The position numbers and the translations under genes were made by a program. 64,000 bases of DNA from Pedobacter sp. (GTDB lineage Bacteria; Desulfobacterota; Desulfuromonadia; Desulfuromonadales; Syntrophotaleaceae), in assembly GCA_050253415.1 (NCBI GenBank), contig JBFWJC010000002.1, positions 256,001 to 320,000 of the forward strand, in the 5' to 3' direction. Positions 5,647-15,469 of the stretch are shown one piece after another. Within the stretch, counting starts at the first letter, position 1. Each line of letters starts with the position of its first letter. The notes under the pieces were generated by a model. It was not told the DNA's origin, searched no databases, and saw only the letters and a program-made list of their open reading frames with translations.

Positions 5647-6041
5647 ACGGTGGGTGGGCCGATGTATTAATCAAAAAAGAAAAGACGTCGAAGCTTTACG
5701 CCTTCAAGCACTCCTGGCGTTTTATTCGCTGGGGGTGAACTTCCGTGCCCTCGTTCTTCCTCCTCACATCCTGCCGCAAGGGCGCAAGGGACCAAGGTTG
5801 AATGTTTAGAACCCTGAACCACTGACAAATGACCAGTCACCAGTCACTGCCCTTATATCATTAGAAATCTTGACGAAATGGAGCTCTGACGTTAGTTTAG
5901 TGCGCGCTTATGAAATTGTATTACCTCGGGTATTTCTGATGTTCAGAGGATGGGGTGATTGTGCGAGGACTAAACGATTAACTTTAAAAGACCGCTCGAT
6001 GCCTGTGAGGCGTGGGTGGTCTTTTTGTTTATGGGGAAGAC

Positions 6042-6812
6042 ATGAGTTATCTACTTGTTTTAGGGGTTATATTCGTAGCCTTTGCGTTTATGGCGGCGCG
6101 CTTGAAGAAGCACTCTGCAAGTTCGTCGGAAGGTGTGCCCTATGAACCCCGGCAGGAATTATTCAGTCCGGCGGAGCGCTCCTTCTTCGGAGTTTTGGAG
6201 CAGGCGGTTGCCGGCCAGTTTCGCGTTATGGGCAAAATCCGCCTGGGGGATCTGATCCAGCCGGCCAAAGGTTTCTCGCACAGTCAACGCACCGGCGCCT
6301 GGAACCGCATTCACCAGAAACACGTCGACTTTGTCCTCTGTCAAACGGATACCCTGTCCGTAGCGGGGGTGGTGGAGCTGGACGATGCCTCCCATCAGCG
6401 TAAGGATCGAAGCGAACGGGATGCGTTTGTCGACAAAGTATTAAGCACCGCCGGTATTCCCATCGTGCATTTTACGGCACGCAAGGGCTATTCGATGCAG
6501 GAGGTTACGGCAAAGTTGAATGAGGTGCTTTCTCTACGTTTGGAGGCATGCGAACCGTTGGTTTTGTCGGTTGTCGCTCAAGAGGAGCAGGCATTGGTGG
6601 AAGAAGTTGCAGAGGCGGTGGTTGAGATTGTCGCTGAAAAGGAGTCTATTGAAATATCGCTTGATCAAGCAATGGAGCAGGGAGTTCCAATGTGTCCTGC
6701 CTGTAGTTCACCAATGCTTAAACGGCAGGCCAAAAAAGGGCCGAATGCCGGAAAATATTTTTGGGCGTGTTCGGCATTTCCGAAGTGTCGGAAGATTCAA
6801 GTTCTTGGGTAA
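6042..6812 (+). CDS. Membrane-anchored DUF2726-like protein with C-terminal topoisomerase-type C4 zinc ribbon
   Basis: N-terminal TM helix; LFSPAERSF, HVDFVLC, VELDDASH; CPAC..M..R..KG...G.YFW.CS.FPKC. Confidence 0.8.
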   Translation: MSYLLVLGVIFVAFAFMAARLKKHSASSSEGVPYEPRQELFSPAERSFFGVLEQAVAGQFRVMGKIRLGDLIQPAKGFSHSQRTGAWNRIHQKHVDFVLCQTDTLSVAGVVELDDASHQRKDRSERDAFVDKVLSTAGIPIVHFTARKGYSMQEVTAKLNEVLSLRLEACEPLVLSVVAQEEQALVEEVAEAVVEIVAEKESIEISLDQAMEQGVPMCPACSSPMLKRQAKKGPNAGKYFWACSAFPKCRKIQVLG

Positions 6813-7025: not shown

Positions 7026-7514
7026 ATGAGTGATATGATCAAAAATGTTTTCATAAGCCATCACCATAAAGATGATTCTAGTGTTGATGGTCTTACTGGT
7101 ATGCTTTCTGGCAAGGGATATCTTTTGAGGAATAGCTCTATTAGAGTTAAACCCAACAACCAAGTCCGACTTGATCAAAAAAAAGTTAGCGACCGCACAA
7201 TAGAGCGCCTTCTCAGGATGAAAATGAAGTGGGCTGGTCAATTAATTGTTGTTATTGGCAAAGAGACGCATAAAAGACCATGGGTGGATTGGGAAATTAA
7301 AGTTGCCCATCGACTTGGAAAGCCAATTATTGGTGTTTACGAAAACGGGCTAAAAGACGAGGTAGAAATTCCTGAAAATTTAAAGAATTATGCAACCTCA
7401 ATCGTTGGTTGGAGGTCTGAATCTATAATAAGTGCACTAAATGGTGAGGGTCAATTCCTAAACCCTGATGGGTCACCCTGTCAGAAAAAGGACGGGGGCT
7501 ATGTAACATGTTGA
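7026..7514 (+). CDS. ThsB-like TIR domain protein (TIR1)
   Basis: CAGGAG RBS; NVFISHHH.DD, LIVVIG.ET..RPWVDWEI (catalytic Glu), GKPIIGV. Confidence 0.85.
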   Translation: MSDMIKNVFISHHHKDDSSVDGLTGMLSGKGYLLRNSSIRVKPNNQVRLDQKKVSDRTIERLLRMKMKWAGQLIVVIGKETHKRPWVDWEIKVAHRLGKPIIGVYENGLKDEVEIPENLKNYATSIVGWRSESIISALNGEGQFLNPDGSPCQKKDGGYVTC

Positions 7515-8170
7515 TTGAACAAGACTCTTATTTGTATGCATATTCAATAACTAGAGACTTTGGCTTTGCGCCAAATCCGTTTCATGGCATCTGTACGCTG
7601 GCTACGTGTAAACCAGGTATCCGTAAAAGTGCTAATGTCGGGGACTGGGTCTTGGGTGTTGGAGGCAGCAAAATGCGGGACGCATCAAGGAAGTGTATAC
7701 TTCTTATGAAAATTACAAAGAAAATAAGCTTCCAAGAATATTGGGAAGATCCCAGTTACTCAATTAAAAAGTCTCTGCGCAACGGCAGTCGGGTTCGAAT
7801 GCTAGGCGACAACATTTACCACAAAGAGAGTAACGCGAATTGGGTTCAAGAAGACTCTCATCATAGTTGTCCGGATGGGACCATAAACCATGTAAATTTG
7901 GCTCGAGATACTAAGTCTGATAACGTTTTAATTTCAAATTATTTCCTGTATTTCGGTGATGCCGCAATCCCGCTTGATTTGCACTCAATTGGATATCATC
8001 GTATACGGGACTTCAAAAAGATCAAACTAACTTTAGGCAACAAGGGTAGAAACTTAATTGAGTCAGTTGTAAATGCACATCGCGGAAAGTTGAATATGGT
8101 AATTTCAGACCCCTGTCAGTTCAAGGATTCCCATAAACGAGTTGACCAAGCTACCGGAAAAATTTCATAG
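7508..8170 (+). CDS. Nucleotide-modification-associated domain 2 (Nmad2)-like protein
   Basis: Y.Y...D.GFAPNPFHG.CTLATCKP.IR..A..GDW, GDNIYH; start overlaps the TIR1 stop. Confidence 0.75.
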   Translation: MLIEQDSYLYAYSITRDFGFAPNPFHGICTLATCKPGIRKSANVGDWVLGVGGSKMRDASRKCILLMKITKKISFQEYWEDPSYSIKKSLRNGSRVRMLGDNIYHKESNANWVQEDSHHSCPDGTINHVNLARDTKSDNVLISNYFLYFGDAAIPLDLHSIGYHRIRDFKKIKLTLGNKGRNLIESVVNAHRGKLNMVISDPCQFKDSHKRVDQATGKIS

Positions 8171-8181
8171 GAGGTAAAGAT

Positions 8182-8735
8182 TTGTCAACCGTTCTCAGAA
8201 AATTTTCATTTCACACTTTAAAGATGATGGTGATGAAGTCGAAGCATTTACCAACTACTTCGCCAACACGCATTCCGTCTTTATTCCAAAGGTCTTGGAG
8301 GTGAATGACAATGATGATTTCATAAACAGAGACGACAAAGACTACGTCATGAGTCGCATCCGTGAGAAGTACTTGCAGGACAGCACAGAGACTATCGTCC
8401 TTTTAGGTAGTTGTACCCACAGCAGACGTTATGTTGACTTGGAGGTCAAAAGTTCACTCAGGGTCGGCCATTTCATTCCCAATGGCCTCATGGGGATTGC
8501 TCTTCCAAGTCGAAACAATCTTGCCCATTTGTCGCCAAGGCTTAAGGCTAATTGGAACTCTGACCATCACAACTGCTATTCTAGGTATTTGTCTTATCCA
8601 GGCTCTCCTGTTGAACTTGTAAGTTGGATCGAGGACGCCTATCTTGCGAGGACATCGTGTGCGCATTTGATTGCAAACACAAAAGATATGATGAGAAACA
8701 AAGGTAAGTGTAAAATTTGCGGGGTGACACACTAA
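8182..8735 (+). pseudogene. ThsB-like TIR protein (TIR2) with frameshift near the 5' end
   Basis: GGAGG plus TTG at 8182 reads MSTVLRK; TIR motif KIFISH..DD continues in the -1 frame from 8199, which has no start codon of its own before 8295. Confidence 0.75.
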
Positions 8736-10783
8736 TGCTTGCTCGATATCAACCACCACTGGCTGTTCACTTTGTTTGGCATCCATCAGACAAGGATTCA
8801 GTTGACCCAATTCTTGGGAGTGTCTTCAAGTATTTTTCGAGAGATGTTGATCGGCCGTTTTCACGGAACCTGAATATCCCCTTGTTTCTGTATAGCTCCA
8901 ACTACCCGACAATTGGGCCGAGCGATTTCCCCCAGGAGCTCGCAACGCGAAATGTCCTATTCATTTTTACTAGCATTAATACAAGAGGGTATGACTCATG
9001 GAACGACTACATTCGGAAGCTTCCGTGTTCAGACCTGTTGAGGGTTGTCCCGGTGGCCTTAAGCCATGAAGGGCTTCGGCATGGGGGGGAGGGAATTCTC
9101 AAGGGTCTCAATTTTATCCGGGCATTTGAATGGCCCGAGAAGTCTATGCCACAACATGCATTCCTCGCCATGGCGCATGAGGTTTACCGCCATGGATTTG
9201 TTGAAATCGAAGAGGGTGACAAAGGCAAGTCGTCATCCATTAAAATTTTCCTTAGCCATGCAAAAAACGGGGACACTGGTCGCCTTCATGCAGAATCCAT
9301 CAAGCGCTTTATTGAGAACACGAACATCTCTCACTTTTTTGACGCGACAGAGATATCGCCGGGGTTCAAGTTTGATGATGAGATAATTGAGCACATCAAA
9401 GAGTCAACGGTTGTGGCAATTAGTAGCGATGCCTATTCCTCTCGATATTGGTGTCAGAGAGAAATCTTGTGCGCCAAAGAGTTTCACAAGCCAATGATAG
9501 CTGTTGACTGCTTGGAGGATTATGAAGACAGGATTTTTCCAGCCGGGTCAAATGTGCCATGCGTTCATGTGTCGCCGGAATCACCAATCAGCGAATCTGA
9601 CATCTTAAGAGTTCTCACCGCTGCAATTTTGGAAACTATTCGACATCACCATGCTCTTAAGTCGCTTGAGCACTATCAGTCCAGAGGGTGGATTGGTAAT
9701 GATTGCGTCCTTGTCTCTCGGCCTCCAGAAATTCGCCAAATTCTCGCGCTGAAGGAGGGGGGGGGTAGCCAGATTTGCTACCCAGAGCCCCCGATATATT
9801 CTGAGGAAGCAGATTGGCATCGTCAGCTTGAAATTGATACTTTCACTCCGCTTTGGAGTAGGGCTGAAAATCTCTCTTTTAGAGGCTTGCGAGTCGGCAT
9901 TTCCATATCAGATGTTACTAGTGAGGGATTTAGTGATAATCATCTTCCTGCAAGTCAATCAACAAGACTGGCTCAAGATCTTGCACGACATCTTCTTGCC
10001 AGATCTGCCACGCTGATATATGGGGGTGACTTGCGCAAGAATGGGTTCACCGAATTCATTTTTGACGAAGCGATTGCGCTTAAAAGTCGTCTTGACACAG
10101 ATGGTGTTTATGTTGAGAACCACCTGGCTTGGCCGATTCACAAAGCTGATAGGGAAATGACTGCTTGGCGAGCGGATTATAGAGAGGTCATGAAAACCGT
10201 AGAGAATAGCATCCCTAGCGATATCTCTAGCAATGTCGACAAAGAAAATTATCTTTCCCCGTCAACGCCTCGGAACAAGTATTTCTGGTCTCGCTGCCTT
10301 ACGGAGATGCGGCTAAATTCTATTGATTCCTCGCATGCACGTATCTGTGTAGGTGGAAAACTATTCGGATACAACGGAAAAATGCCAGGTGTCTTGGAGG
10401 AAATTCTCATCGCAATTAGTAAGAAGAAGCCCATCTACTTGTTGGGAGCTTTTGGTGGAGTTGTTGGCGAGGTTTGCAAGGTGCTTCGTAATGAACCATA
10501 CCCAGATTCGCTAACTGAGGCATGGCAGGTCACTCATAATGCCGGCTACGTTGATCTTCAAGCGATTGCACGAGAACATGGTATGCACGCAGATTATGAA
10601 CAGGGAAAGGTAGCCCTTTCAGGTATAGAAATCCACATGCTGTCGGAAAATGCAGGTCTAGAAGAAGATACTTATTTGCGGCTGATGGAAACTCCTTTTG
10701 TAGATGAATGTATTCATCTGGTCATGCAAGGCTTGAAGAAGATCTCGTCAAAGATGAACAGAAAGGAGGGGATTGAAGCGTGA
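8735..10783 (+). CDS. TIR + SLOG (LD_cluster2-like) fusion protein
   Basis: TAATG overlap; TIR IFLSHAK..YWCQREIL; SLOG VGISIS, LIYGGDLR, LTEMR, ARICVGGK, MPGVLEE, PIYLLGAFGG. Confidence 0.82.
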   Translation: MLARYQPPLAVHFVWHPSDKDSVDPILGSVFKYFSRDVDRPFSRNLNIPLFLYSSNYPTIGPSDFPQELATRNVLFIFTSINTRGYDSWNDYIRKLPCSDLLRVVPVALSHEGLRHGGEGILKGLNFIRAFEWPEKSMPQHAFLAMAHEVYRHGFVEIEEGDKGKSSSIKIFLSHAKNGDTGRLHAESIKRFIENTNISHFFDATEISPGFKFDDEIIEHIKESTVVAISSDAYSSRYWCQREILCAKEFHKPMIAVDCLEDYEDRIFPAGSNVPCVHVSPESPISESDILRVLTAAILETIRHHHALKSLEHYQSRGWIGNDCVLVSRPPEIRQILALKEGGGSQICYPEPPIYSEEADWHRQLEIDTFTPLWSRAENLSFRGLRVGISISDVTSEGFSDNHLPASQSTRLAQDLARHLLARSATLIYGGDLRKNGFTEFIFDEAIALKSRLDTDGVYVENHLAWPIHKADREMTAWRADYREVMKTVENSIPSDISSNVDKENYLSPSTPRNKYFWSRCLTEMRLNSIDSSHARICVGGKLFGYNGKMPGVLEEILIAISKKKPIYLLGAFGGVVGEVCKVLRNEPYPDSLTEAWQVTHNAGYVDLQAIAREHGMHADYEQGKVALSGIEIHMLSENAGLEEDTYLRLMETPFVDECIHLVMQGLKKISSKMNRKEGIEA

Positions 10784-10917
10784 TTCCTAATGCACTGAAA
10801 GTTGGCCGGAAGAGGGGTAAATTTGGCGAGGTTATGAAAAATGCGAACTTGGCACTACGGGTCGCCCACAAAATCAAACAATTCTCAAAATGCTACATTG
10901 TAAATGATTCTGTGTAA
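10780..10917 (+). pseudogene. 45-codon ORF coupled to the TIR-SLOG stop, possible truncated next gene
   Basis: AAAGGAGG at 10762-10769 and GTGA start/stop overlap. Confidence 0.35.
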
Positions 10918-11130
10918 ACTGCCTGCCGATCAAAGTATCGGTATTCGATCTTTAAAAATGATCCCAATTTGATCCCGGGATGATTTCTATTTACAGATCG
11001 GCATAGTCCCTTTTTCAAGATGTTCAGCTAAAGGAAATTGTCTGTATGGCATCTGCGTTAAAATTTAGTTATCGAAGGACCAAAGGAGAGTGTGGGGGAC
11101 TGATAGCTCACATAAAGAAGGAAATTGCAG

Positions 11131-12828
11131 ATGCAAAAGAATAACGAGGGAATTTTAACGGGGAAATTATTTGTATTTGAAGGGCCAGATGGTGTTGGTA
11201 AAAGCACTTTAGTTGAGTATGTTTGCAGGGCTTTGAAGACTGATGGTGTGCAAGTTTTAACCTTGAGTTTTCCGGGCCGTTCTCGGGGATCATTAGGCGA
11301 ATTGGTTTACCGACTTCATCATGACTCTGGTCAGTTTTGTATTGATAAAATCAATAAATCAAGCCTCCAAGTGCTACATGTCGCAGCCCATATTGACTGT
11401 ATTGAAAGAGTGATTTTACCTGCTTTAAAAAGGGGGATGACTGTAGTTCTTGACAGATTTTGGTGGTCAACTGTTGTTTATGGCACAGCAACTGGAGTAC
11501 CGAAAGAAATATTAGACGCCCTTGTGCGCCTGGAGGAGGTTGCATGGGGCGGGCGTAAACCCGATATGGCTTTTTTGGTCTCAAGAGATAAGCCATTTAG
11601 GGAAGAATTATCGTTGAAAAAGTGGGAGGTAGTTTGTGATCAATATAAGAATTTGTTCGATACTCAAAAAGATATTCATCCTGCCGAGATAATTGAAAAT
11701 AATTCCTCAATTGAAAATATTTCTAACCGAATTTATGAAAAAATGATTGGTAGTAGCAAACAACATTCTTTTGATTACGGAGATATACCGAAATATATCA
11801 ATGATAGAAAAACTTCATATTTAAACTTAACTCGCAACGTAACCTGGTTGCCAACTAAGACTACAGAGGTCTTCGATACATACTGGCGCTTTGCGGCTGA
11901 GAGGCAAGACATTTTTTTCCGCAGGGTAGAAAATACAATCGGTCCTTTTACAAACGACCCAATACTTAGGATTCATAAGTTCACAAACGCTTATAGGGCC
12001 TCAGATAGGGTAAGTCAATATCTAATTAAAAATGTAATTTATAATGGAGACCAGGATCCAAAAGAAGTATTCTTTAGAACAATACTGTTTAAGTTTTTTA
12101 ATAAAATAGAGACATGGGAAAAGTTAACGAATAAAATAGGAGACATTTGCTATAAAGACTTCAATTTTAAAATGTATGATGAAGTATTAACAAAGGAAAA
12201 GATGGTAAACAGTATATACTCTGCAGCTTATATCATGTCTTCAAGTGGGAAAAATATGCCTTTCAATGTAAAGCATAGAAACCATCTAAAGCTAATTGAA
12301 AGGATGATGGCTGAGGACTTACCTCTTAAAATTTGCGACGCAAAATCTTTACAACAAGTTTTCTATTTGCTGAGAGAATATCCAATGATTGGTGATTTTT
12401 TAGCGTTTCAATACGCAATTGATCTCAATTACAGCGCAATGATTAACTTTAGTGAAATGTCTTTTGTCGTTCCTGGACCTGGTGCTAAAGATGGTATGAG
12501 GAAATGTTTTTTAGATTATGGAGGGCGATCAGAGGTTGATTTGATAAAGTGCATGGCGGACCGTCAAGAGCAAGAGTTTGAACGCTTAGGTCTTTCTTTT
12601 AAAAGCTTATGGGGACGGCCGCTTCAACTTATTGATTGTCAAAATTTGTTTTGTGAGGTTGATAAGTACGCTCGAATTGCTCACCCTGACGTTTGCGGCC
12701 TTACTGGGAGGAAAAAGATTAAACAGAAATTCAGACCGATATATAAGCCTATTGAATATTTTTTCCCCCCTAAGTGGAATATTAATGAGGCAGTTAAAAA
12801 AAGTATTAAAATATCTAAAAAAGTTTAG
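11131..12828 (+). CDS. Thymidylate-kinase-like P-loop domain fused to aGPT-Pplase1 / 5-hmdU DNA kinase helical-like domain
   Basis: FEGPDGVGKST, VLDRFWWS; FDTYWRFAAERQ..F..R, DPIL..HKFTNAYRASDRVSQ, GPGA, DCQNLFCE.DKY.R. Confidence 0.8.
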   Translation: MQKNNEGILTGKLFVFEGPDGVGKSTLVEYVCRALKTDGVQVLTLSFPGRSRGSLGELVYRLHHDSGQFCIDKINKSSLQVLHVAAHIDCIERVILPALKRGMTVVLDRFWWSTVVYGTATGVPKEILDALVRLEEVAWGGRKPDMAFLVSRDKPFREELSLKKWEVVCDQYKNLFDTQKDIHPAEIIENNSSIENISNRIYEKMIGSSKQHSFDYGDIPKYINDRKTSYLNLTRNVTWLPTKTTEVFDTYWRFAAERQDIFFRRVENTIGPFTNDPILRIHKFTNAYRASDRVSQYLIKNVIYNGDQDPKEVFFRTILFKFFNKIETWEKLTNKIGDICYKDFNFKMYDEVLTKEKMVNSIYSAAYIMSSSGKNMPFNVKHRNHLKLIERMMAEDLPLKICDAKSLQQVFYLLREYPMIGDFLAFQYAIDLNYSAMINFSEMSFVVPGPGAKDGMRKCFLDYGGRSEVDLIKCMADRQEQEFERLGLSFKSLWGRPLQLIDCQNLFCEVDKYARIAHPDVCGLTGRKKIKQKFRPIYKPIEYFFPPKWNINEAVKKSIKISKKV

Positions 12829-12846
12829 GGTGAGAAAAGAGGCGAA

Positions 12847-13872
12847 ATGGAATACCACCGACCACCGTACTTTTTAAGGGAATTAAAGCTAGAAGTAACC
12901 CACGATTGCAGGTTAGACTGCATTCATTGTTCTAGCATGGCACAGAGAATAACTCACAGAGAAATTCCCCTTGAGAGGTGTAAAGAGATTCTACGTGAGG
13001 CATCAACCCTCGGTGTCGTTGATGTAGCGTTTTCTGGTGGTGAGCCGTTGTTGTGGCAGGGGCTAACCGATGTGGTATCTCTCTCCTCCCATTTAGGGAT
13101 GAATGTTTCTTTGTATACCACTGGTAATGTTGACAGTAATGAATTAATTTTTTCAAGCTTAAAGTCAGCGGGGCTTGGTCGAGTCATGTTCAGTCTTTTT
13201 GGTGAGAATGCCAAGCTGCATGAGACAGTAACAAGGGTGAAAGGAAGTTATGAAGTTACTCTGGCAGCGATCAAGAAATGTATCGATTTTGACTTTGAGG
13301 TTGAACTTCATTTTGTACCGCTATCGGATAATTATTTAAGTTTAAGGAAAATTGCAGAGTTAGGAAAAGTGCTTGGTGTGAGTCGTTTGAGTGTTCTTAG
13401 GTTAGTTCCGCAAGGGCGTTGTGAGCTAAATGGCGTCAAGGCTTTAACAAAATCTCAAAACCTTGATTTGCGGAGATTGATAATTGGGCTTCGAGATCAG
13501 GGTTACGAGATCCGCACTGGCTCCCCCTTTAATGCCTTGATGTTGAGGGAAAAGCCACAATGCTGTTCAGGGATAGACAGATTGACAGTGTCTCCAGATT
13601 TAAAAATTTCCCCATGCGACGCCTTTAAACAAGTATCCTGTCAGTCGTTGGGTGTTGGAGATGAATACTCCTCATTGAATGGCAACACGCTCACAGAGTG
13701 TTGGGAAAAATCTCCATACCTTCAGCTTATTCGTAATTATTTGACAACACCCTTTGCAAATATATGTGCTGTTTGCCCCTCATTGGAAAACTGCCTTTCT
13801 GGATGTGTTGCCCAAAAATTTCATGCTTATGGAAATTTAGCTAAATGTCCAGATCCAATGTGTTTAATGTAA
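12847..13872 (+). CDS. Radical SAM enzyme with SPASM domain
   Basis: CRLDCIHC, SGGEP, C.SG..RLTV.PD...SPC, CxxC..CxxxC..DPMC. Confidence 0.9.
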   Translation: MEYHRPPYFLRELKLEVTHDCRLDCIHCSSMAQRITHREIPLERCKEILREASTLGVVDVAFSGGEPLLWQGLTDVVSLSSHLGMNVSLYTTGNVDSNELIFSSLKSAGLGRVMFSLFGENAKLHETVTRVKGSYEVTLAAIKKCIDFDFEVELHFVPLSDNYLSLRKIAELGKVLGVSRLSVLRLVPQGRCELNGVKALTKSQNLDLRRLIIGLRDQGYEIRTGSPFNALMLREKPQCCSGIDRLTVSPDLKISPCDAFKQVSCQSLGVGDEYSSLNGNTLTECWEKSPYLQLIRNYLTTPFANICAVCPSLENCLSGCVAQKFHAYGNLAKCPDPMCLM

Positions 13873-14030: not shown

Positions 14031-14152
14031 GGGTCGGACCAAGGTAAGCAACTGATATTCCACAGAAATCATTGAAAAACACCGCCAAAAACAGGCTTAT
14101 AAGCCCCTTTTTGGGGTCAAAATGCGCCGGTTTAAGATATTTGGGGGCAATG
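14031..14152. repeat. 122-bp direct repeat, copy 1
   Basis: Matches 15347-15469 with about 10 differences; both copies end in GGCAATG. Confidence 0.92.
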
Positions 14153-14547: not shown

Positions 14548-15159
14548 TCAATCGTTAGGATCGGGGGCGATCTCGGTGGGGCCTTTGATCAACACGCCCC
14601 ACGCTCCAGGGCTGAGATCCGCCGCGTTGGCTTCATCGGTGTCGACGTGCATATCCAGCACGTAGCTCTCTTTGACACGTACGAGCACGTCATCAAAAAT
14701 GATCCCCCGCTTGCCGCCCACACGCACCATGACCCATTGCCTATCTTTGACACCCAAGCGCTCTGCATCGGCCGGGGTCATATGGATATGTCGTGCCGCC
14801 TGGATCACACCTTTTTCAAGCACGACGACGCCTTGAGGGCCTTCGAGACGAATGCCAGGTGTATCCTCGAGCTTGCCCGAAGCGCGGATCGGTGCGTCGA
14901 CACCGAGCTTGAACTCGTCGGTGCGCGATATTTCAAGCTGCGTCTCCTGGCGCTCGGGGCCAAGGACGCGTACGCGCTCGATGCAACCTTTGGGGCCGCA
15001 GATGGTGACCGTCTCTTCGCAGGCGAATTGTCCTGGCTGACTTAATGCCTTGGCGGGCGTAAGCTGATGGCCGGAGCCAAAAAGTGCCTCGACATGTTGG
15101 CGGCAGAGATGAACGTGGCGCATGCTGGCGCTGATGGGGATGCGGAGTTCTTCACTCAT
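14548..15159 (-). CDS. pduL: Phosphate propanoyl/acetyl-transferase, PduL family
   Basis: S.RHVHL, LSQPGQFA, VRVLGP.R..TQ.E.S.TD, RHIHM, MHVDTDEANAA. Confidence 0.92.
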   Translation of the reverse strand: MSEELRIPISASMRHVHLCRQHVEALFGSGHQLTPAKALSQPGQFACEETVTICGPKGCIERVRVLGPERQETQLEISRTDEFKLGVDAPIRASGKLEDTPGIRLEGPQGVVVLEKGVIQAARHIHMTPADAERLGVKDRQWVMVRVGGKRGIIFDDVLVRVKESYVLDMHVDTDEANAADLSPGAWGVLIKGPTEIAPDPND

Positions 15160-15346
15160 CGATGGACTTTTCTCCAAGATTCGCAAAAGGTGGGGTGTTG
15201 ACTGGAAATAGCTTTGCAGGCGCCTGAAGCGGGCGGTGATCAGCGCCGACGTCTGTGCCTTCGAACTTACCATCCCCTCATTCGGCCGGTCAACAAAGAA
15301 TCCCCCGCGTATGGCTTGGACTAAGGCCAGCAAGGAAGGGGTGATT

Positions 15347-15469
15347 GGGTCTGACCAAGGTAAACAACTGATATTTCTCCGAAATTATTGAAAAACACCG
15401 CCAAAAACAGGCTTGTAAGCCCCATTTCGGGGTCAAAATGCGCCGGTTTAAGATATTTGGGTGGCAATG
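15347..15469. repeat. 122-bp direct repeat, copy 2
   Basis: Matches 14031-14152. Confidence 0.92.

Follow-up and report, generated by a model that had tools for sequence, protein, structure and literature searches.

A TIR-Nmad2 gene pair beside a TIR-SLOG gene in a low-GC island: a tentative link between Thoeris-like and DS-4-type defence

The DNA analysed here, a contiguous stretch of 64,000 nucleotides (the window), carries at positions 7026-13872 a block of co-oriented genes (table 1) with a GC content of 0.35-0.47 throughout, against about 0.55 in its flanks. The initial annotation had ended the unit at 10783, which is too short: the kinase fusion and radical SAM genes, co-oriented and themselves conserved partners in relatives, extend it to 13872, 341 nt separating TIR-SLOG from the kinase gene. 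A scan for promoters and terminators did no better than on shuffled sequence (12 promoter-like sites vs 15.7 expected), and no RNA run proved to contain the stretch. The junctions described earlier are largely as stated: TIR1 and Nmad2 overlap by 7 nt, and the Nmad2 stop (TAG, 8168-8170) runs into a ribosome binding site (GGAGG, 8170-8174) to give TAGGAGG. The TAATG junction, in which the stop of TIR2 (TAA, 8733-8735) and the start of TIR-SLOG (ATG, 8735-8737) share one A, is present too, but the TIR2 that it closes is frameshifted and not an intact, coupled gene. The reported lack of SIR2, Macro and transmembrane effectors also stands, as Pfam gave no SIR2 or Macro match in seven island proteins (six of the operon, one neighbour) and no operon protein has a 19-residue segment above 1.5 on the Kyte-Doolittle scale. 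Thymidylat_synt was likewise without a Pfam match in the island proteins.

Table 1. Coordinates of the island genes, domains and junction (positions in the window)
Feature	Position	Strand	Description
TIR1	7026..7514	+	ThsB-family TIR protein, 162 aa; orthologue of DS-4 gene 4
Nmad2	7508..8170	+	220 aa; Pfam PF18753, E 9.4e-61; predicted TIR1 partner, PUA-like fold
TAGGAGGT	8168..8175	+	Nmad2 stop merged with Shine-Dalgarno for TTG 8182; direct sequence reading
TIR2	8182..8735	+	Second ThsB-family TIR gene, broken
TIR-SLOG	8735..10783	+	Putative effector, 682 aa, three domains
TIR-SLOG N-terminal alpha/beta domain	8735-9229	+	Residues 1-165
TIR-SLOG TIR domain	9239-9643	+	Residues 169-303; Glu243, motif WCQREI
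TIR-SLOG SLOG cluster 2 domain	9875-10750	+	Residues 381-672
[quoted passage not shown]
Radical SAM/SPASM-type enzyme	12847..13872	+	Pfam Radical_SAM, E 1.1e-16

TIR2 is a decaying pseudogene here. The frame of the TTG served by the ribosome binding site closes after 40 codons (stop at 8302-8304), and the TIR domain lies in a different frame, open from 8178 to 8735, where no ATG, GTG or TTG occurs before 8295. Compared with homologues, 1 nt has been deleted in AAAATTTT, an A4T4 run at 8199-8206; the motif M..(R/K)(R/K)(V/I)FISH is read in a single frame in all 23 TIR2 homologues compared. The Pfam ThsB_TIR profile matches the ORF from 8295 only over its positions 39-99, and among 65 columns that do not vary across 19 homologues TIR2 deviates at 10, one of them W82L beside the Glu, against 0-4 in the other rows. 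The broken sequence recurs, identical, in a contig of depth 50 from the probable source run. Thus, the present copy is no working multi-TIR operon, as had been proposed.

TIR1, on the other hand, deviates at none of the 26 columns invariant among its homologues. It belongs to ThsB_TIR (Pfam, E 2.7e-19), matches the PADLOC ThsB1 model PDLC00418 over its full length (E 2.3e-62), and has as its best solved relatives by profile ThsB1 (9b7d) and BcThsB (6lhy), with an E of 1.7e-10. Its previously noted catalytic Glu (residue 90, motif WVDWEI) is invariant in 27 TIR1 rows, as is that of TIR-SLOG (E243) in 47. TIR1 and Nmad2 are an obligate pair: in every one of the 72 related loci whose upstream DNA is long enough, the gene immediately upstream of Nmad2 is TIR1. 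Natural fusions also occur (ThsB_TIR+Nmad2, TIR_2+Nmad2, Nmad2+ThsB_TIR+TIR_2, and HMUDK_hel+ThsB_TIR+Nmad2). When co-folded, as the initial annotation had advised, the two proteins are predicted to form a heterodimer, with an ipSAE of 0.90 in each of three runs, whereas none of three controls exceeded 0.00. The runs had at least 85% of contacts in common, with partner pLDDT of 89-90; the score expresses model confidence and is no measurement. In the calibration of the tool, 116 of 157 solved complexes passed, as did 2 of 215 mismatched pairs, counts that are only roughly valid for TIR1·Nmad2 because alignments made for the present analysis were used. In fold, the AF2 model of Nmad2 (pLDDT 95.1) weakly resembles YTH/EVE/ASCH modified-base readers: in the VIA wide search, the best match was YTHDC1 with a middling Z of 7.8, below 8 (rmsd 3.4, 136 aligned), and the top 21 rows were all YTH/EVE/ASCH/McrB-N/VcaM4I-type domains; Foldseek returned nothing at E <= 0.001, and a sequence search of the PDB gave no match. 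Nmad2 carries many invariant polar residues, and judged by these it could be an enzyme rather than a reader.

TIR-SLOG has 889 homologues, and the 120 listed are 56-100% identical to it over 80-100% of the query. In Pfam, residues 177-267 fall to TIR_2 and 388-652 to SLOG cluster 2 (PF18163, E 2.5e-59). In the AF2 model (pLDDT 87.5), the best structural match of the SLOG domain is the BcThsA SLOG with 3'cADPR (7uxs; Z 15.5, rmsd 2.9, 184 aligned), against Z of 12-14 for base-releasing LOG enzymes, and the nearest structures to the TIR domain are NADase TIRs, those of SPARTA (Z 11.6) and SARM1 (Z 11.0). When the N-terminal domain was set against the TIR2 family by profile, hhalign found no match (probability 0.3). 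As modelled, TIR-SLOG resembles a ThsA with TIR replacing SIR2, and the models fit the earlier suggestion that the SLOG domain controls the TIR NADase to which it is fused. With type I Thoeris the locus shares a ThsB-family TIR gene adjoining an effector with a C-terminal SLOG closest to that of BcThsA; multiple thsB genes per effector are usual in that type. It differs in its killing domain, which is TIR and not SIR2, in the additional 165-aa N-terminal domain of its effector and in the predicted pairing of its ThsB with an Nmad2 partner. The PADLOC ThsA models found no match among the window proteins and no N-terminal SIR2 was matched, and the locus is not assigned to type I. The DefenseFinder representative of ThsA, as tabulated, matches Pfam SLOG cluster 2 (Table S5, PMC13092281).

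Several TIR-domain proteins with a SLOG-domain protein also recall type III Thoeris (van den Berg et al. 2024, as presented in 10.64898/2025.12.03.692087 and PMC13276650). In a true locus of that type (L177), however, ThcA is a stand-alone 188-aa SLOG of cluster 3 and ThcB4 a 380-aa TIR protein, whereas the window SLOG is of cluster 2. The ThcA model (NCBIfam NF058525) gave no match up to E 10 for TIR-SLOG, TIR1, TIR2 or Nmad2, and the ThcB4 model (NF058526) reached 19.7 bits in the window, over the TIR core only, against a cut-off of 220; true ThcA and ThcB4 score 245 and 452 bits on their own models. Type III membership is ruled out. Two general features of Thoeris are present: a ThsB-type TIR with a catalytic Glu (TIR1) and, in the predicted structure of TIR-SLOG, an effector that unites a domain for signal binding with one for killing.

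The kinase fusion combines HMUDK_hel (PF18723, E 2.4e-110) with Thymidylate_kin (E 7.7e-18), domain homology that points to a putative phosphorylation of 5-hmdU in DNA. Its helical part is related to aGPT-Pplase and matches 420 phage records, the 15 of these listed being 26-34% identical. The NCBIfam matches of the radical SAM gene are all below threshold (PqqE, 106 bits vs a cut-off of 381); in most relatives its position is taken by a thymidylate-synthase-like gene, and its homologues follow the kinase gene in two loci (L003 and L136) and Nmad2 in one (L128). Across 21 selected loci, the nucleotide enzymes near TIR1-Nmad2 are TS-like (12), DCD-like (6), MazG/MazG_C (5) and dNMP kinase (2), and in all five of a further set of loci TIR-SLOG has a MazG_C and a UDG-like gene behind it. 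No 5-hmdU-synthesising gene was found in the window. A kinase of this fused architecture with a radical SAM gene adjoining it is reminiscent of phage thymidine hypermodification, for which 5-HMUDK, aGPT-Pplase/amino-acid:DNA transferases and radical SAM isomerases have been described (Lee et al. 2021, PMC8989533), though the window genes sit in a cellular defence island.

The TIR1-Nmad2 pair has its parallel in DS-4 (working id NTTI), a five-gene E. coli defence system (DeWeirdt et al., DefensePredictor, Science 2026, PMC13092281), given as validated and replicated in Tables S6-S8, though Table S7 has a single row for it, and a weak one (lambda, -log EOP 0.93, small plaques). DS-4 genes 4 and 5 (163 and 220 aa) are this ThsB-type TIR with Nmad2 after it, the match of window proteins to the sequences of Table S8 having been checked by eye only; between Nmad2 and the Enterobacteriaceae cluster P0236, which again by eye is DS-4 protein 5, identity is 62%, and a DS-4-like metagenome locus (L100) shares 69% (TIR1) and 63% (Nmad2) identity with the window. 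Both have a P-loop dNMP kinase and HMUDK_hel, yet these are two genes in DS-4 and one fused protein here, with a helical domain only 28% identical to a DS-4-type copy; the first gene of DS-4 is thymidylate-synthase-like, whereas a radical SAM gene adjoins the kinase in the window; and DS-4, as listed, has neither TIR2 nor TIR-SLOG. Since TIR1 and Nmad2 are orthologous to DS-4 genes 4 and 5, Nmad2 is already part of a catalogued system, which goes half-way to the refutation that the initial annotation had set for itself; since DS-4 lacks TIR-SLOG, the SLOG effector is dispensable for TIR1·Nmad2.

How often the two sets of genes travel together was counted in 48 TIR-SLOG loci flanked by 4 kb or more on either side and in 24 well-flanked Nmad2 loci. 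A ThsB-like TIR gene is present in 43/48 TIR-SLOG loci; TIR1-Nmad2 occurs in 21 of them and Nmad2 is absent from 27, and conversely TIR-SLOG is found in 10 of the 24 Nmad2 loci and missing from 14. Kinase-fusion homologues stand beside TIR1-Nmad2 in 16/24. The order TIR1-Nmad2-TIR-SLOG with gaps below 200 nt is seen in 11 of the 21 linked loci, in 8 of which tblastn found no other ThsB-like gene; in five TIR1-Nmad2-TIR-SLOG loci, Pfam detected no further TIR among 42 neighbouring ORFs. All 22 long TIR-SLOG matches in Nmad2-anchored loci are, by table count, on the Nmad2 strand. Type I R-M, AbiEii and Schlafen/AlbA genes adjoin related loci. Each module also occurs alone, and Nmad2 is no general component of TIR-SLOG operons. 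The best explanation of the block at 7026-13872 is a single horizontally acquired anti-phage island of two recurrently co-occurring modules; that it serves defence in the present host, we infer.

Our favoured reading, held tentatively and as something short of an even call, is that TIR1·Nmad2 acts as sensor and signal maker and TIR-SLOG as NAD-depleting effector. In the first module, Thoeris-like, a small ThsB-family TIR protein would on infection make an NAD-derived signal, which the SLOG of TIR-SLOG would bind, switching on its own TIR so that NAD+ is degraded and infection aborted. The second, the DS-4 core, would comprise the TIR1·Nmad2 heterodimer, the nucleotide/DNA-base kinase and the radical SAM enzyme. 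The dedicated ThsB, TIR2, is dead in the present genome, and TIR1·Nmad2 would therefore be the sole intact signal maker. As a PUA-like 'modified-base reader', Nmad2 may recognise a cue and then license TIR1. The likeliest cue would be an abnormal pyrimidine (dU, 5-hmdU or a phosphorylated form), carried by DNA or present in the nucleotide pool, that either arrives with the phage or is made by the kinase and radical SAM enzymes. The role of these enzymes is presumed, as are what Nmad2 binds and the passing of an NAD-derived signal from TIR1 to SLOG. The sensor role that the initial annotation gave to Nmad2 is indirectly favoured by its constant pairing with TIR1, the fusions, the predicted complex and the PUA-like fold.

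It is less probable, though still a serious contender, that two independent defence systems share the island and exchange no signal: a Thoeris-like pair of TIR2 and TIR-SLOG, which the frameshift in TIR2 has crippled, and a stand-alone DS-4-type system of TIR1-Nmad2, kinase and radical SAM. The separate occurrence of the modules counted above speaks for it, as do the listing of DS-4 as validated without any TIR-SLOG in the tables of PMC13092281, the direct overlap of TIR2-type genes with TIR-SLOG (TAATG here; without Nmad2 in 11/48 loci) and the fact that defence genes cluster for causes besides common function. Yet the linkage in both directions is far above chance for two rare gene families, in the eight tight, co-oriented operons already mentioned no ThsB-like gene but TIR1 was detected next to TIR-SLOG, and in the window the DS-4-type genes flank TIR2/TIR-SLOG on both sides instead of being set beside them.

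We regard as improbable a signal built by nucleotide modification and not from NAD+, in which the kinase and radical SAM enzymes (elsewhere thymidylate-synthase-like, dCTP-deaminase-like or MazG enzymes in place of the latter) would make a modified pyrimidine nucleotide, TIR1 would be an N-glycosidase of the MilB/DNPH1 kind processing it with Nmad2, and the product would be the SLOG ligand. Enzymes of dU/5-hmdU chemistry always accompany TIR1-Nmad2 in the 21 selected loci, the MazG_C and UDG-like genes behind TIR-SLOG would suit such a pathway, and the DS-4 TIR is labelled 'NDT' in Table S8, with an HHpred match to 4JEM, a CMP/hydroxymethyl-CMP hydrolase (PMC13092281); Burroughs et al. 2015 is cited as predicting such domains in defence. 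By profile, however, TIR1 is nearest to ThsB, with no MilB or NDT chain up to E 10; the SLOG is nearer to the cADPR-binding ThsA SLOG than to LOG enzymes; and TIR-SLOG also has plain TIR2-type partners without nearby nucleotide enzymes. That the island is not immunity at all and is a mobile element's DNA-hypermodification or nucleotide-salvage cassette, its TIR and SLOG proteins being nucleotide-processing enzymes, seems very improbable: the low GC and the kinase helical domain shared with phage thymidine-hypermodification genes (PMC8989533) would agree with it, but Nmad2 is found in 11 viral loci against at least 564 metagenome-contig loci, DS-4 is tabulated as lowering lambda plating, R-M and Abi genes neighbour the relatives, and the TIR domain in TIR-SLOG looks like those of NADase effectors.

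A more daring reading, and one we would rate as a long shot, is a 'write-read-kill' circuit. On infection, an abnormal pyrimidine (dU, 5-hmdU or phospho-5-hmdU) would be written into replicating phage DNA or the nucleotide pool by the kinase/aGPT-Pplase-like fusion and the radical SAM enzyme or, in relatives, by TS-like, dCTP-deaminase-like, MazG and UDG-like enzymes; Nmad2, bound to the ThsB-type TIR, would recognise the mark and release TIR1, whose signal would trigger the SLOG-gated TIR NADase. If this is true, DS-4 and the present operon would form a branch of Thoeris triggered by a host-made modified base and not by a phage protein. Overall, the island joins a Thoeris-like TIR/SLOG module to the TIR-Nmad2 and kinase genes of DS-4, and so offers a testable idea of how DS-4 may signal.

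The six genes between positions 7026 and 13872 of the window fit a composite island, in which a Thoeris-like TIR2/TIR-SLOG module (A) stands beside a module of TIR1-Nmad2, kinase fusion and radical SAM genes (B). From about 6.5 to 14 kb, G+C drops to 0.35-0.47, compared with about 0.55 in both flanks, and the six genes, all in one orientation, fill this low-GC island. The junctions listed in the initial annotation proved exact (a 7-nt overlap of TIR1 and Nmad2, TAGGAGG at the Nmad2 stop, TAATG between TIR2 and TIR-SLOG), as did its remark on absent SIR2, Macro and transmembrane effectors: neither a SIR2/Macro domain nor a transmembrane-like segment occurs in any of the six operon proteins (0/6). 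The catalytic Glu residues are E90 in TIR1 and E243 in TIR-SLOG. A promoter/terminator scan gave results no better than shuffled sequences. At the island's upstream edge lies a gene for DUF2726 and a topoisomerase-type zinc ribbon, whose product carries a hydrophobic helix at its N terminus (KD 2.39); it was rejected as a system member, as only two weak zinc-ribbon look-alikes occur near related loci (L134, L178). A basic 45-codon ORF, whose GTG start overlaps the TIR-SLOG stop (GTGA) and is preceded by AGGAGG, was likewise rejected as a gene, having a single weak look-alike in the whole set of retrieved loci (L010, E 0.006). Just beyond the island, a minus-strand gene is bracketed by a 115-nt direct repeat, 92% identical, which may mark a small repetitive element.

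Features of the low-GC island and its edges (window positions)
Feature	Position	Strand	Content
DUF2726 gene	6012-6812		DUF2726 + topoisomerase-type zinc ribbon
TIR1	7026-7514	+	ThsB_TIR
Nmad2	7508-8170	+	PF18753, E 9.4e-61
TIR2	8182-8735	+	second TIR of ThsB type
TIR-SLOG	8735-10783	+	TIR_2 at residues 177-267; SLOG cluster 2 at 388-652
45-codon ORF	10780-10917		rejected as gene
kinase fusion	11125-12828	+	dTMP-kinase-like domain + HMUDK_hel, E 2.4e-110
radical SAM	12847-13872	+	Radical_SAM, E 1.1e-16
direct repeat, copy 1	14031-14145		115 nt
bracketed gene	14548-15333	-	
direct repeat, copy 2	15347-15461		115 nt

Module B is built around a pair that appears inseparable in this subfamily. At least 564 relatives came out of a metagenome scan for Nmad2; 80 loci (44-75% identity) were kept, and a TIR1 orthologue lies directly upstream of Nmad2 in all 72 loci with at least 520 nt of upstream DNA. 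Co-folding supports a TIR1-Nmad2 partnership: the predicted complex reached an ipSAE of 0.90 in each of three runs, whereas none of three controls exceeded 0.00, with contact agreement of at least 85% between runs and partner pLDDT of 89-90. The pass mark of this test is met by 116/157 solved complexes and 2/215 mismatched pairs, a calibration that is rough here given the use of our own alignments. These predictions support binding of TIR1 to Nmad2, with a predicted interface at TIR1 residues 95-100, 119-126, 140-144 and 151-162. By profile, the nearest solved relatives of TIR1 are ThsB proteins (E 1.7e-10), and the same search returned no nucleoside deoxyribosyltransferase or MilB chain. For Nmad2 (model pLDDT 95), a profile search of PDB sequences gave no match up to E 1, and Foldseek none at E <= 0.001; in a structural search independent of Foldseek, the top 21 rows are all PUA-like (YTH, EVE, ASCH, McrB-N and the VcaM4I EVE domain). 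The fit to YTH (Z 7.8, rmsd 3.4, 136 aligned) is middling by the tool's warning for Z <8; a PUA-like fold is argued from the consistency of the rows and not from the score.

The company of Nmad2 is rich in nucleotide-related enzymes. Of the 24 Nmad2 loci flanked by 4 kb or more at either end, 16 carry an HMUDK-type gene, 10 TIR-SLOG, 5 both and 3 neither. In 21 Nmad2 loci selected for a kinase or radical SAM match, the otherwise unexplained neighbours include genes resembling thymidylate synthase (12/21) and dCTP deaminase (6/21), MazG/MazG_C (5/21), dNMP kinase (2/21) and Nmad3 (1/21). The whole family comprises 1961 clusters at 50% identity (E <= 0.001) and contains natural TIR fusions (ThsB_TIR+Nmad2, TIR_2+Nmad2, Nmad2+ThsB_TIR+TIR_2 and HMUDK_hel+ThsB_TIR+Nmad2), as well as fusions to MazG+MazG_C (782 aa), a NOV_C nuclease-like domain (368 aa) and pentapeptide repeats (302 aa) in protein clusters P0326, P0316 and P0253. 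In viral-contig loci a TIR adjoins Nmad2 in just 3/11; since distant members sometimes stand without an adjoining TIR, the obligate pairing applies to the window's subfamily, not to the whole family. One viral contig (L179, 5505-8523) carries module B, as TIR1-Nmad2-HMUDK-radical SAM, without TIR-SLOG, possibly as prophage cargo. In the window's own phylum, Nmad2 matches occur in 9/401 genomes; most are distant, and the returned loci are short.

The same pair forms part of DS-4 (working id NTTI), a five-gene defence system of E. coli listed as replicated, in which a TIR with the label 'NDT' and Nmad2 accompany a thymidylate-synthase-like gene, a dNMP kinase and HMUDK_hel (DeWeirdt et al., Science 2026, PMC13092281). 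The sole DS-4 row of the plating table there concerns lambda (-log EOP 0.93, small plaques), and the passages describing the 2026 validation propose no mechanism (PMC13092281). As printed there, the DS-4 TIR and Nmad2 sequences appear, by eye, to equal the TIR of our locus L100 and Nmad2 cluster P0236; the L100 TIR is 69%, and P0236-type Nmad2 62-63%, identical to the window proteins. Predicted defence domains, according to that paper, include MazG, MazG_C, aGPT-Pplase, dUTPase and an Nmad domain, with earlier prediction of several of them credited to Burroughs et al. 2015 (PMC13092281). Our full-text search, with earlier domain-prediction papers outside its reach, found no relevant paper on Nmad2 and only a general mention of 'TIR-SLOG'. 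Among the signalling TIR systems in the tables and models compared, a ThsB locked to a partner protein is absent.

The effector of module A has its own wide distribution. TIR-SLOG has 889 homologues, and the 120 listed share 56-100% identity across 80-100% of the query; the family is scattered over many phyla, with at least 106 confirmed stretches in one-genome-per-species contigs, from which 77 loci were kept. One homologue, on a Verrucomicrobiales contig (L076, 10001-12013), has an in-frame stop codon. In the TIR-SLOG model (pLDDT 87.5), predicted residues 381-672 fit best the SLOG domain of BcThsA with bound 3'cADPR (Z 15.5, rmsd 2.9, 184 aligned), which outranks LOG, TRPM and DprA, and residues 169-303 would resemble the TIRs of SPARTA (Z 11.6) and SARM1 (Z 11.0). 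Its profile retrieved a plant TIR alone from PDB sequences (E 0.038), and residues 1-165, an unassigned domain, gave an hhalign probability of 0.3 in a comparison with the TIR2 family. Published accounts of type III Thoeris combine several TIR proteins with a SLOG effector and give its signalling as unknown (10.64898/2025.12.03.692087, PMC13276650). In the comparison with described multi-TIR Thoeris suggested in the initial annotation, the window proteins fall short of both type III models of NCBIfam, ThcA and ThcB4; true type III loci, located with ThcB4 in 4/401 genomes of one order, differ in that their ThcA is a stand-alone SLOG cluster 3 protein of 188 aa. In one such island (L177, 5751-11947), from a genome whose order is not that of the window, three ThsB-type TIR genes and a SLOG cluster 2-patatin gene precede ThcB4, ThcA and a further TIR. 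Type III Thoeris thus adjoins a second SLOG effector there, the patatin protein, which also matches the CBASS lipase model.

Do the two modules work together? The main rival reading is that two systems merely share one island, and modules A and B each also occur alone. In the 48 TIR-SLOG loci flanked by 4 kb or more on each side, any ThsB-like TIR gene is found in 43 and a small TIR gene is absent from 5; a TIR2-type gene (at least 50% identity) occurs in 18, and an HMUDK-type kinase in 9, always together with Nmad2. Small ThsB-type TIRs are the usual partners, and TIR1·Nmad2, also the DS-4 core, is present in nearly half (21/48). In 11 of these 21 loci the order is TIR1-Nmad2-TIR-SLOG with gaps <200 nt, and 8 of the 11 have no second ThsB-like match; the window's four-gene order occurs in 6/21 and other orders in 4/21. 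Loci L023 and L024 are examples of an intact operon in the four-gene form. A Pfam scan of five direct loci (L026, L030, L033, L051 and L054) found no TIR among 42 neighbouring ORFs, and all five carry, at about 8.8-13.9 kb, an operon of TIR1, Nmad2, TIR-SLOG, MazG/MazG_C and a UDG-superfamily gene, without a kinase gene; several adjoin type I R-M, AbiEii or Schlafen/AlbA genes.

In the window itself, TIR2 is not the intact, coupled gene first described: a 1-nt deletion splits its frames and ten substitutions fall at invariant sites. The RBS after Nmad2 serves TTG 8182, from which the frame closes after 40 codons; the TIR domain lies in a different frame that has no start codon before 8295. Start and '(R/K)(R/K)(V/I)FISH' strand share one frame in 23/23 homologues compared, relative to which one base is missing from the window's AAAATTTT (8199-8206). 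Its TIR2 also deviates at 10/65 columns invariant in 19 homologues, including a Trp-to-Leu change beside the catalytic Glu, while other rows deviate at 0-4; the corresponding figures are 0/26 for TIR1, 0/20 for the TIR-SLOG N-terminal domain and 2/94 for Nmad2. Judged from sequence, we take TIR2 to be a decaying pseudogene, with a small chance that the missing base stems from faulty assembly; the same sequence stands in a depth-50 contig of the probable source run, and the other DNA run (X2) leaves 8143-9031 uncovered. No RNA run carrying the stretch is listed. Rescue by another start codon or by ribosomal slippage appears unlikely: in-frame ATG, GTG and TTG are absent, ATT 8202 stands at a distance of 27 nt from the RBS, A AAA TTT does not have the form of a canonical slippery heptamer, and ten substitutions fall at invariant sites.

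For a composite island acting as one system, TIR-SLOG would be the analogue of ThsA, with a TIR domain replacing SIR2, and, because TIR2 is dead, TIR1·Nmad2 would be the only candidate signal maker in the window. The putative cue of Nmad2 is a modified pyrimidine, to which its fold, the fusions in its family and the dU/5-hmdU-type enzymes that constantly accompany it all point. We infer a signal from TIR1 to SLOG, the Nmad2 ligand and the roles of kinase and radical SAM. The case is not categorically new, since both modules and their domains were earlier described or predicted. The TIR-SLOG operon family nonetheless places the TIR-Nmad2 pair of DS-4 directly before a ThsA-like SLOG effector, and raises the concrete question of whether a TIR1·Nmad2 signal activates TIR-SLOG, and of what Nmad2 reads. 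Should Nmad2 sense modified bases, TIR immune signalling would be linked to the chemistry of nucleotide or DNA modification.
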